Shown: positions 35,901 through 38,351, counted from the stretch's first letter. The stretch: DNA of 64,000 nt from Escherichia coli (GCF_016903815.1 NZ_CP069973.1); one strand, 5' to 3'. Program-made: the numbers.

Positions 35901-38351
35901 TATGTTCGGTATGTACGGCAGAAAAGTAAAGTTATCCCATTCTGAGATGATTGAAGATAATAAAAAAGACTTGGCTGTAAATGAACATGGGTTGACATGT
36001 CCATTTACACAAGATTGCTGGTAATGCTGCCAACTTACTGATTTAGTGTATGATGGTGATTTTAAGGTGCTTGCGTGGCTTCCATTTCCATCAGATGTCC
36101 TTCCTGCTCCGCTACTGAAGGCGTGGTGCGTAACGGCAAAAGCACTGCCGGACATCAGCGCTATCTCTGCTCTCATTGCCGTAAAACATGGCAACTACAG
36201 TTCACTTACACCGCCTCTCAGCCCGGTACGCACCAGAAAATCATTGATATGGCCATGAATGGCGTCGGATGTCGCGCCAGTGCACGCATTATGGGCGTTG
36301 GCCTCAACACGGTTTTACGTCACTTAAAAAACTCAGGCCGCAGTCGGTAACCTCGCGCATACAACCGGGCAGTGATGTGATTGTCTGCGCTGAAATGGAC
36401 GAACAGTGGGGCTACGTCGGTGCTAAATCACGTCAGCGCTGGCTGTTTTACGCGTATGACAGGATACGGAGGACGGTTGTGGCGCACGTCTTCGGTGAAC
36501 GCACTCTGGCCACACTGGAGCGTCTTCTGAGCCTGCTGTCGGCCTTTGAGGTCGTGGTATGGATGACGGATGGCTGGCCGCTGTATGAATCACGCCTGAA
36601 GGGAAAGCTGCACGTTATCAGCAAGCGTTACACTCAGCGCATTGAGCGACATAATCTGAATCTGAGACAACATCTGGCAAGGCTGGGACGGAAGTCACTG
36701 TCGTTCTCAAAATCGGTGGAGCTGCATGACAAGGTCATCGGGCATTATCTGAACATAAAACACTATCAGTAAGTTGGAGTCATTACCAGATTGCTCAAAT
36801 AGATGTATTGATTATATTAATCCAGAGCATAAAAAAACGATAAAGGCTTTACAAGATGCTGGCTATCTCAAGTAACATCTCAAAGATGGTAATATTTATT
36901 TTTGCTATTATAATCGTTGTTTTTTTATGCGTGACTACTTATCTTTATTTACACAAAGATGAATCTCTTGTAAGTAAGCATTACATAAACTATATGGCAA
37001 TACCAGAAAGTGATGGGGTTTTTACATGGCTCCCAGATTTTTTTCCGCATGTAGCGGTGGATATATCAATATCCACAAATGTAGAAGATGATTATTTTTT
37101 TTCTTATTTTTCCCTAACAATCGATGATGGGGGGAGGTTTAAGAAAACATTGACGGTGAGGGCCAGGGAACAAGTGGCGAAAATCGTATCAGAGAATGAT
37201 CCAGATACAAAAAAAGTGTGGTGTAAATATGGTAAAATACCAGGGCAAGGGGATAGCGTAAACCTTTTTTTTGTTGGTGAAATTAATGTTACGCATTATT
37301 TTATAACAAATATTGGAGCTGGATTGCCTGATGCTTGTGCAGAGTAATTGCTTGAATTAAGAGTCTATCCCATATCGAAGTCGTCAACTTCGTAGTGAGG
37401 AAAAGTAAAATCCCTGACTGAGAAAAGACATGTCGGCTATTGTGTAAAGCCATATAGCTCAGACGATGAATATCTACTCGTATTCAGTTGTTTATTGAGG
37501 GTGAGTTCCGACCCTGAAACAACAAATAAAATGAATAGTCAGAGAGTTTACATAGAATTGCACTAGTCTTTTACGATATCTGACATTGTGTAATACATAT
37601 TCAGCCATGCATTAATTAAAATGTTTCGTGTTTAATGTGAGTCCCTATCTGAAAATAAATAATCCTTCCGGATTAAAATAAATTCTCGCCGGGAAAGAAA
37701 GAGGAAATAAACCATTAGCGGAAAACCAGCGGCACGCCAGGGTGACATGCCCCAGTACGGCGGCCCGATAGTCCAGGGTTCAGCGGGGGTACTGATAGTC
37801 GCGCCGACTGCATCGAGAACTCCATACAACTTTTTACGGAACGTCACCTGATAAAATTTGTTCAGTATCGTCTTTTGAGATTCTCAAGGTTATGGAGTAA
37901 CCAGACAGAACGGACACCACTGTCGGAGATAAAAACCCCCTGTTTACGCAGCTCGTTGCTGGCCCGGTGCTGACCATGTGTCGGGAAAGCGACGGTGTAA
38001 TCAACAACAGCCTGTTCAGTTGCCTCATCGGTACGGTTCTTAAGGTTAGGAGCGCGGCGACTACGATTAATCTGCACATCCACACCGCCTTCAGCGGCCA
38101 GTTCGCGGTAACGATAAAACGTTTCACGCGAAACGCCCATGATTTTACAGGCTTTTGATACGTTGCTGAGTTCTTCAGCCAGATTGAGCAAACCGGCTTT
38201 GTGTTTGATGACGGGATTGGCAGTATGAAGCATGAGAGTTACCTCTTGTTTTGGATAAGGATTCGACACTCATATCAAAACCGGTAACTCTCAACCTTTC
38301 AAGGCCATGTGTCAGATCAAGTCGCGACTAATACAAATACGTCCCTCATCA

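Follow-up and report, generated by a model that had tools for sequence, protein, structure and literature searches.

The 64,000-nucleotide stretch of Escherichia coli DNA analyzed here (GCF_016903815.1, NZ_CP069973.1; the window) carries an rhs gene whose 3' end is interrupted by a copy of the insertion sequence IS1, upstream of ybbD, the candidate immunity gene for the Rhs toxin tip. The gene order is ybbA-ybbP-rhs-IS1-ybbD-(ylbI remnant)-ylbG-mnmH-allS, and the site is the RhsD locus of K-12. The rhs open reading frame (ORF) now occupies 31897-36024 (+ strand), between ybbP and ybbD/ylbG/mnmH, and encodes 1375 amino acids (aa). RefSeq names the product 'RHS element core protein' (WP_021523019.1), and its exact sequence was found on 237 contigs. 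Residues 1-1258 match the NCBIfam RHS_core profile with 2711 bits (cut-off 2000), Rhs_assc_core and YD repeats are also matched, and a DUF6531 domain spans residues 46-123 (32032-32265, +; Pfam independent E-value (i-E) 1.3e-18). The conserved core ends at the DPLGL motif, residues 1254-1258 (35656-35670, +), as judged from the translation, the end of the RHS_core profile and base composition. The variable tip begins directly after this motif, where the G+C content drops from 0.64 to 0.36. The 804-aa ORF upstream of rhs was considered as a VgrG and rejected; by annotation it is ybbP.

The inserted element is a 768-bp IS1 of the IS1F type (36020-36787, +) with its transposase genes oriented as rhs. 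It shares 99.3% identity with K-12 IS1F and 91.1% with IS1A. Its terminal inverted repeats, 36020-36042 and 36765-36787, agree at 20/23 positions. Both insA (36075-36350, 91 aa) and the insB frame (36269-36772) are open, the A6C frameshift motif of IS1, TTAAAAAAC, lies at 36324, and RefSeq labels the element an IS1 family transposase with programmed frameshift and no pseudogene flag. K-12 IS1F has the same length, inverted repeats starting GGTAATG, insA and insB and the A6C site, but in K-12 insB7 carries a pseudogene annotation, and the window copy has open frames. The window copy differs further in the clean 8-bp direct repeat around it, AGATTGCT, which abuts the element on both sides (36012-36019 and 36788-36795). 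Because the bases beyond the two copies differ, the repeat is exactly 8 bp; the chance of an 8/8 match at fixed positions is 4^-8, approximately 1.5e-5. The two copies of this target-site duplication correspond to a single copy in uninterrupted alleles, with AGATTGCT present once only in the empty-site loci L002-L005, L015 and L016. IS1 usually duplicates 9 bp of its target, and 8 bp has been reported for variant IS1. The flanks of K-12 IS1A and IS1F were inspected and showed no duplications, and are therefore uninformative on the choice between 8 and 9 bp. IS1 prefers A+T-rich targets, and the G+C content at the insertion target (0.36, against 0.64 in the Rhs core) fits this preference.

The present end of rhs is supplied by IS1. 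The ORF terminates in FTQDCW, with the TGG codon straddling the junction and the TAA at 36022-36024 in the left end of the element, so that 26 codons of the tip are replaced by one Trp. The severed 3' remnant lies beyond the element at 36796-36875 (+). Read with the T at 36019, it codes for the 26 residues now missing, SNRCIDYINPEHKKTIKALQDAGYLK, and for a stop codon, and it appears in RefSeq as an N-terminally incomplete fragment. Removal of IS1 and one repeat copy in silico yields a 1400-aa product that ends in DCSNRCIDYINPEHKKTIKALQDAGYLK (final residues DAGYLK), with its stop codon at 36873-36875, and overlaps the 163-aa ybbD ORF, starting at the ATG at 36856, by 20 nt. The first-pass annotation had proposed the IS1 between 8-bp repeats, the FTQDCW terminus with its TAA inside the inverted repeat, a truncation of about 26 codons and a frame restored by excising the element. 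The sequence bears out each of these, and the restored frame exists as a real allele in strain EFF60.

Once IS1 and one copy of the repeat are taken out of the window, EFF60 (NZ_CP086678.1) differs from it by 5 single-nucleotide polymorphisms (SNPs) and no indel over 14.4 kb. Its Rhs, annotated as 1400 aa (WP_249469322.1), agrees with the reconstruction at every residue, and its YbbD is the same protein as in the window. Full-length uninterrupted Rhs proteins are also found in ETEC1748 (1400 aa) and O157:H7 (1398 aa), and the 26-residue tail is the same in ETEC1748, 09-00049 and EFF60. With a 400-nt query spanning the reconstructed junction, the sequence was continuous in 2644 complete genomes. 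A native rhs stop at the IS1 junction was looked for in these comparisons and the opposite was found, as the uninterrupted alleles run on for 26 residues. The rhs-IS1-ybbD stretch itself is present in 113/5426 complete E. coli genomes, and 4 SNPs in 64 kb separate the window from strain 7/2. Published work places the carriers WCHEC4533 and WCHEC96200 in sequence type 405 (ST405), phylogroup D; the ST405 assignment of carriers covers these two strains, both from the literature. A single IS1F-type element transposed into the A+T-rich 3' end of the RhsD-locus rhs in the forebear of a lineage with ST405 strains among its members, and clonal descent would have followed. One ancestral insertion and clonal spread explain the 113 identical junctions, and nothing suggests that the insertion was selected. 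EFF60 most simply represents the pre-insertion state; precise excision, the other possible origin of that state, is rare.

The restored tip comprises 142 residues after DPLGL. Tip residues 1-116, with helices H1-H4, are retained (35671-36018, +), as delimited by the Pfam SAA match, the alignment, an AlphaFold2 (AF2) model and Foldseek. The Pfam SAA match (i-E 5.7e-4, model positions 9-84) lies wholly inside the retained part, and sequence matches in the PDB were to serum amyloid A (SAA) proteins only. Homologues retrieved with the tip by word-indexed search were confined to near-identical sequences from E. coli and Hafnia, whereas exhaustive searching with HMMER yielded 90 cluster representatives, 43 of which were aligned. 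D39, H43, C44, E70, D73, D100, N104, C116 and C120 are invariant in the 43 homologues, and M30, C48, D96 and G107 are near-invariant (G107 in at least 90%). The AF2 model of the restored tip (predicted local distance difference test score, pLDDT, 96.6) has helices at 2-33, 39-51, 56-78, 90-108, 116-123 and 129-137. A Foldseek search of the PDB puts SAA1 or SAA3 structures in each of the first 7 places (probability 1.0, target template-modeling score 0.68-0.74). Judged by profile, alignment and predicted fold, the tip is a serum-amyloid-A-like toxin domain of the prok-SAA Lipocone family.

The prok-SAA family is marked by a His in helix 2 that has an Asp at -4, acidic positions in helix 3, and a helix-4 Asp followed by small-N-x-x-G, and the SAA-Wnt clade is defined by a short fifth helix that packs between H2 and H4 (Burroughs, Nicastro and Aravind, eLife 2025, PMC12419801). 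The restored tip shares with these toxins the SAA fold, the His/Asp(-4) pair in H2, the Asp and small-N-x-x-G in H4, the short fifth helix and the position at the tip of an Rhs protein. It differs in the motif VNEHGL, in which Leu replaces the Arg of sNxxGR. The window allele differs also in having no fifth helix, which is present in the model of the restored allele; the ancestral gene is therefore the prok-SAA member and the present product a truncated derivative. Family members are predicted to act outside the cytoplasm on phosphate-linked lipid head groups, with immunity proteins that are membrane-anchored or lipoproteins (PMC12419801), and the membrane-anchored partner encoded here matches the predicted periplasmic action. 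The family assignment is the sole basis for proposing that the native toxin is periplasmic and acts on phosphate-linked lipid head groups. A characterized relative of the family is TelC, with its immunity protein TipC. No assay of any prok-SAA toxin was found in the literature searched. The main text of PMC12419801 names neither YbbD nor ylbH, and the immunity folds that it lists do not include YbbD.

The partner gene, ybbD (36856-37347, +), is intact and encodes 163 aa that match NCBIfam NF011298 over the full length with 373 bits; the exact protein sequence occurs on at least 1000 contigs. YbbD has an N-terminal membrane anchor at residues ~8-31, with the strongest hydrophobic stretch at 8-26. 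A Pfam scan of YbbD gave no match, and PF26610 (YbbD_head) was seen in precomputed annotations only. Related genes follow diverged toxin homologues. At locus L010 a toxin 55% identical to the window tip is followed by a YbbD_head protein 31% identical to YbbD. At L017 (toxin 47% identical) a 171-aa YbbD homologue with a WLPDFFP motif begins 3 nt downstream (1226-1741, +), an ORF left uncalled in the public assembly. A weak YbbD_head match lies downstream of the L018 toxin (38% identical) and a probable YbbD relative downstream of the L013 toxin (50% identical). No YbbD-like partner was seen at L014 (toxin 38% identical; the contig of P0093), where the toxin has no partner gene on its strand. 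The occurrence of YbbD-like genes directly after diverged toxin homologues supports the tip and YbbD as a cognate toxin-immunity pair, with YbbD the candidate immunity protein. The first-pass annotation had likewise suggested a toxin-immunity arrangement with the downstream gene left intact; ybbD is intact, and the arrangement is strengthened by the identity of the downstream gene as ybbD and by the YbbD-like genes following homologues of 55%, 47% and 38% identity.

Integrity of ybbD depends on a homopolymer. In the window a T8 tract (37095-37102, +) keeps the 163-aa frame, while alignment shows T7 in K-12, O157:H7 and ETEC1748, where the frame shifts after 86 aa to give an 86-aa product. Among 2759 complete genomes with the region, a T8 query was matched exactly in 955 and ~1801 are one base shorter (65%). 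Since the YbbD homologues are single long ORFs, the 163-aa form is ancestral. Because ETEC1748 carries T7 on a background near-identical to that of the window, this change may have arisen more than once; the T7/T8 difference may stem from slippage or phase variation or else from sequencing error. The polymorphism means that the toxin and immunity genes of the module decay independently across E. coli.

K-12 offers a second outcome at the same chromosomal site (ybbP ... ylbG-selU/mnmH-allS). Its ylbH-ybbD comprises the same tip and downstream gene, with 95.8% DNA identity, and conserves both the DAGYLK tail and the 20-nt overlap with ybbD. In K-12, however, the tip is an orphan fragment, ylbH, behind rhsD-ybbC, and ylbH and ybbD (T7) are annotated as pseudogenes. 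K-12 rhsD bears another tip with the partner ybbC, and RhsD diverges from residue ~1200 on. In the window, EFF60, ETEC1748 and O157:H7 the tip is instead fused to a full-length Rhs core, and in the window ybbD is intact while the tip is cut by IS1. The K-12 'pseudogene' ylbH (L002, 8950-9660) encodes a confident SAA-fold domain with the Lipocone active-site pattern intact. Downstream of ybbD in the window are a ylbI-like fragment (37714-37809, +) and a truncated ylbG encoding a helix-turn-helix (37868-38233, -); as in K-12, they add to the gene remnants where the Rhs element ends.

Overall, we think it likely that an IS1F insertion cut the 142-aa SAA-like tip after residue 116, probably killing the toxin, and uncoupled ybbD. 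The truncated product stops at tip residue 116 plus one Trp, where the Trp and TAA supplied by IS1 end the tip. The 26 residues encoded by the remnant, SNRCIDYINPEHKKTIKALQDAGYLK, are tip residues 117-142. With them go the two terminal helices (116-123 and 129-137) and Cys120 of C116-x3-C120, which is invariant in 43/43 homologues, each of which continues at least 8 residues past it. One CxxxC motif, C44-x3-C48, lies in helix 2 and the other, C116-x3-C120, in the fifth helix, suggesting a twin disulfide staple by which the terminal helix may be fastened to helix 2. Loss of the terminal helix would destabilize the toxin domain, and a destabilized domain would most likely be dead. Sequence and model thus favor a dead toxin as the probable outcome.

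Retention of immunity through ybbD is plausible, the balance tipping slightly in its favor, and an 'immune but disarmed' state is a plausible description. That the truncated lineage is non-toxic yet YbbD-protected, near-isogenic with EFF60 and differing from it only in the fifth helix and the CxxxC staple, is as a whole less likely than not. Several observations weigh against the 'immune but disarmed' label, and the first of these concern expression. ybbD is now separated from rhs by 776 bp and sits behind IS1. It would no longer be translationally coupled to rhs and would need read-through from IS1 or a promoter of its own. A promoter and terminator scan found no plus-strand promoter-like site in the 68 bp that lead from the end of IS1 to the ybbD ATG, nor did it find a convincing terminator; hybrid -35/-10 pairs at the right end of IS1, examined by inspection, were poor matches only. 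IS1 insertions are classically polar. Given the lack of a promoter-like site and this polarity, ybbD may be poorly expressed in IS1 carriers. A K-12 table from genomic SELEX (systematic evolution of ligands by exponential enrichment) records an RpoD-binding site between ylbH and ybbD without coordinates, so the site may lie upstream of the cut. Frameshifted ybbD is, moreover, the majority form in E. coli and also stands beside the full-length Rhs toxin in O157:H7 and ETEC1748. Judged by these alleles, many natural backgrounds evidently do without an intact YbbD, and the natural need for it is put in doubt.

A further question is whether the weapon was in use when it was cut. Neutral decay of an already idle rhs-ybbD module, silenced by H-NS or served by an incomplete type VI secretion system (T6SS), is a serious possibility, if somewhat short of an even one. 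The IS1 insertion would then be a mere clonal marker without change of phenotype, and 'immune but disarmed' would describe the DNA and not the functional state. One core gene went undetected in ST405 in a large T6SS survey, and the weapon may therefore already have been out of use when IS1 arrived. The A+T-rich stretch between ybbP and rhs (G+C 0.27 at 31600-31899), with H-NS flagged at the rhsD promoter region in the K-12 genomic SELEX table, hints at silencing of rhs. Matches of the Rhs N-terminus (residues 1-29) to PAAR are weak and non-significant (Pfam i-E 0.14 and 1.3). Decay of the module is also recurrent, as seen in the orphan fragment of K-12, in the frameshifted ybbD of 65% of genomes with the module and in strain Res13-Lact-ER07-18 (L015, NZ_CP062889.1, ~4431-5650). 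There an independent IS3 sits in an orphan copy of the tip, 49 nt to the 3' side of the IS1 position (~36844 in the window), and ybbD is missing. On the other hand, EFF60 keeps both the 1400-aa rhs ORF and the 163-aa ybbD whole, and neither differs from its window counterpart apart from IS1, so no damage had accumulated before the insertion, and the catalytic residues are invariant across the tip family.

It is less likely, indeed improbable, that the truncated toxin is still active, with a four-helix core that folds alone and a lineage that stays armed. Survival of a lineage with an active truncated toxin would imply that ybbD is still expressed. The predicted active-site residues D39 and H43 (helix 2), E70 and D73 (helix 3) and D100, N104 and G107 (helix 4) all lie upstream of the cut, as does the entire Pfam SAA match. 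With no catalytic residue gone, the truncated tip may keep some residual activity. The disulfide pairing is moreover deduced from motif geometry, which also weakens the case for a dead toxin. Yet all 43 aligned homologues have Cys120 and continue at least 8 residues past it, the lost fifth helix between H2 and H4 is what defines the SAA-Wnt clade, and the cut would leave the C44-x3-C48/C116-x3-C120 motif with an unpaired partner. A dead toxin remains the better account of the truncated tip.

Misplacement of an IS1 copy into rhs by faulty sequencing or assembly was rejected as extremely improbable: no point in its support was found, 113 complete genomes, each assembled independently, have the junction at 100% identity, the 8-bp duplication is clean and single-copy in empty sites, and the window departs from strain 7/2 by just 4 SNPs per 64 kb.

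Breakage of a toxin ORF by a mobile element next to an immunity ORF that is kept, leaving orphan immunity, is a well-known pattern at polymorphic toxin loci. PMC9846239, for one, is among the papers that treat truncated effectors and orphan immunity genes. The window resembles IS-disrupted T6SS/Rhs effectors with retained immunity in both respects. It differs from them in that just the last 26/142 tip residues are lost, with the catalytic residues spared, and in that a near-identical uninterrupted strain is known. The event is ordinary IS-mediated toxin decay, inherited in one clinical lineage, and its pieces are already annotated in RefSeq. The insertion accounts for what RefSeq lists at this locus in more than 100 genomes (a 1375-aa Rhs, an IS1 and a small orphan fragment), and its junction is a clean lineage marker. 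Because just the terminal helices and one invariant cysteine are removed, the truncation is a ready-made structure-function variant; with a toxin from the recently defined prok-SAA Lipocone family and a near-isogenic strain in EFF60, the locus is a convenient experimental handle. Were the lineage indeed non-toxic and YbbD-protected, the terminal helix would be essential for this toxin family, whose relatives include human SAA and Wnt; a multidrug-resistant clone of global spread would, in addition, have dropped one interbacterial weapon and kept the shield.

Other features lie elsewhere in the window. Rfam gave no match in or near rhs-IS1-ybbD; above the gathering score were the sRNA STnc480 (51309-51375, +) and the nucleoid-associated RNA naRNA4 (22912-22989, -), neither connected with the insertion. 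The first 16.7 kb (1-16687, +) are the 3' part of a giant BapA-related adhesin gene, siiEA, followed to ~20025 by genes for a type I secretion ATPase and an HlyD-family adaptor. A short YadA-family adhesin gene lies at ~21109-22125 (-). The ureidoglycolate dehydrogenase gene allD (53435-54484, -) has an internal stop at codon 199 and is annotated as a pseudogene by RefSeq in strain 7/2.

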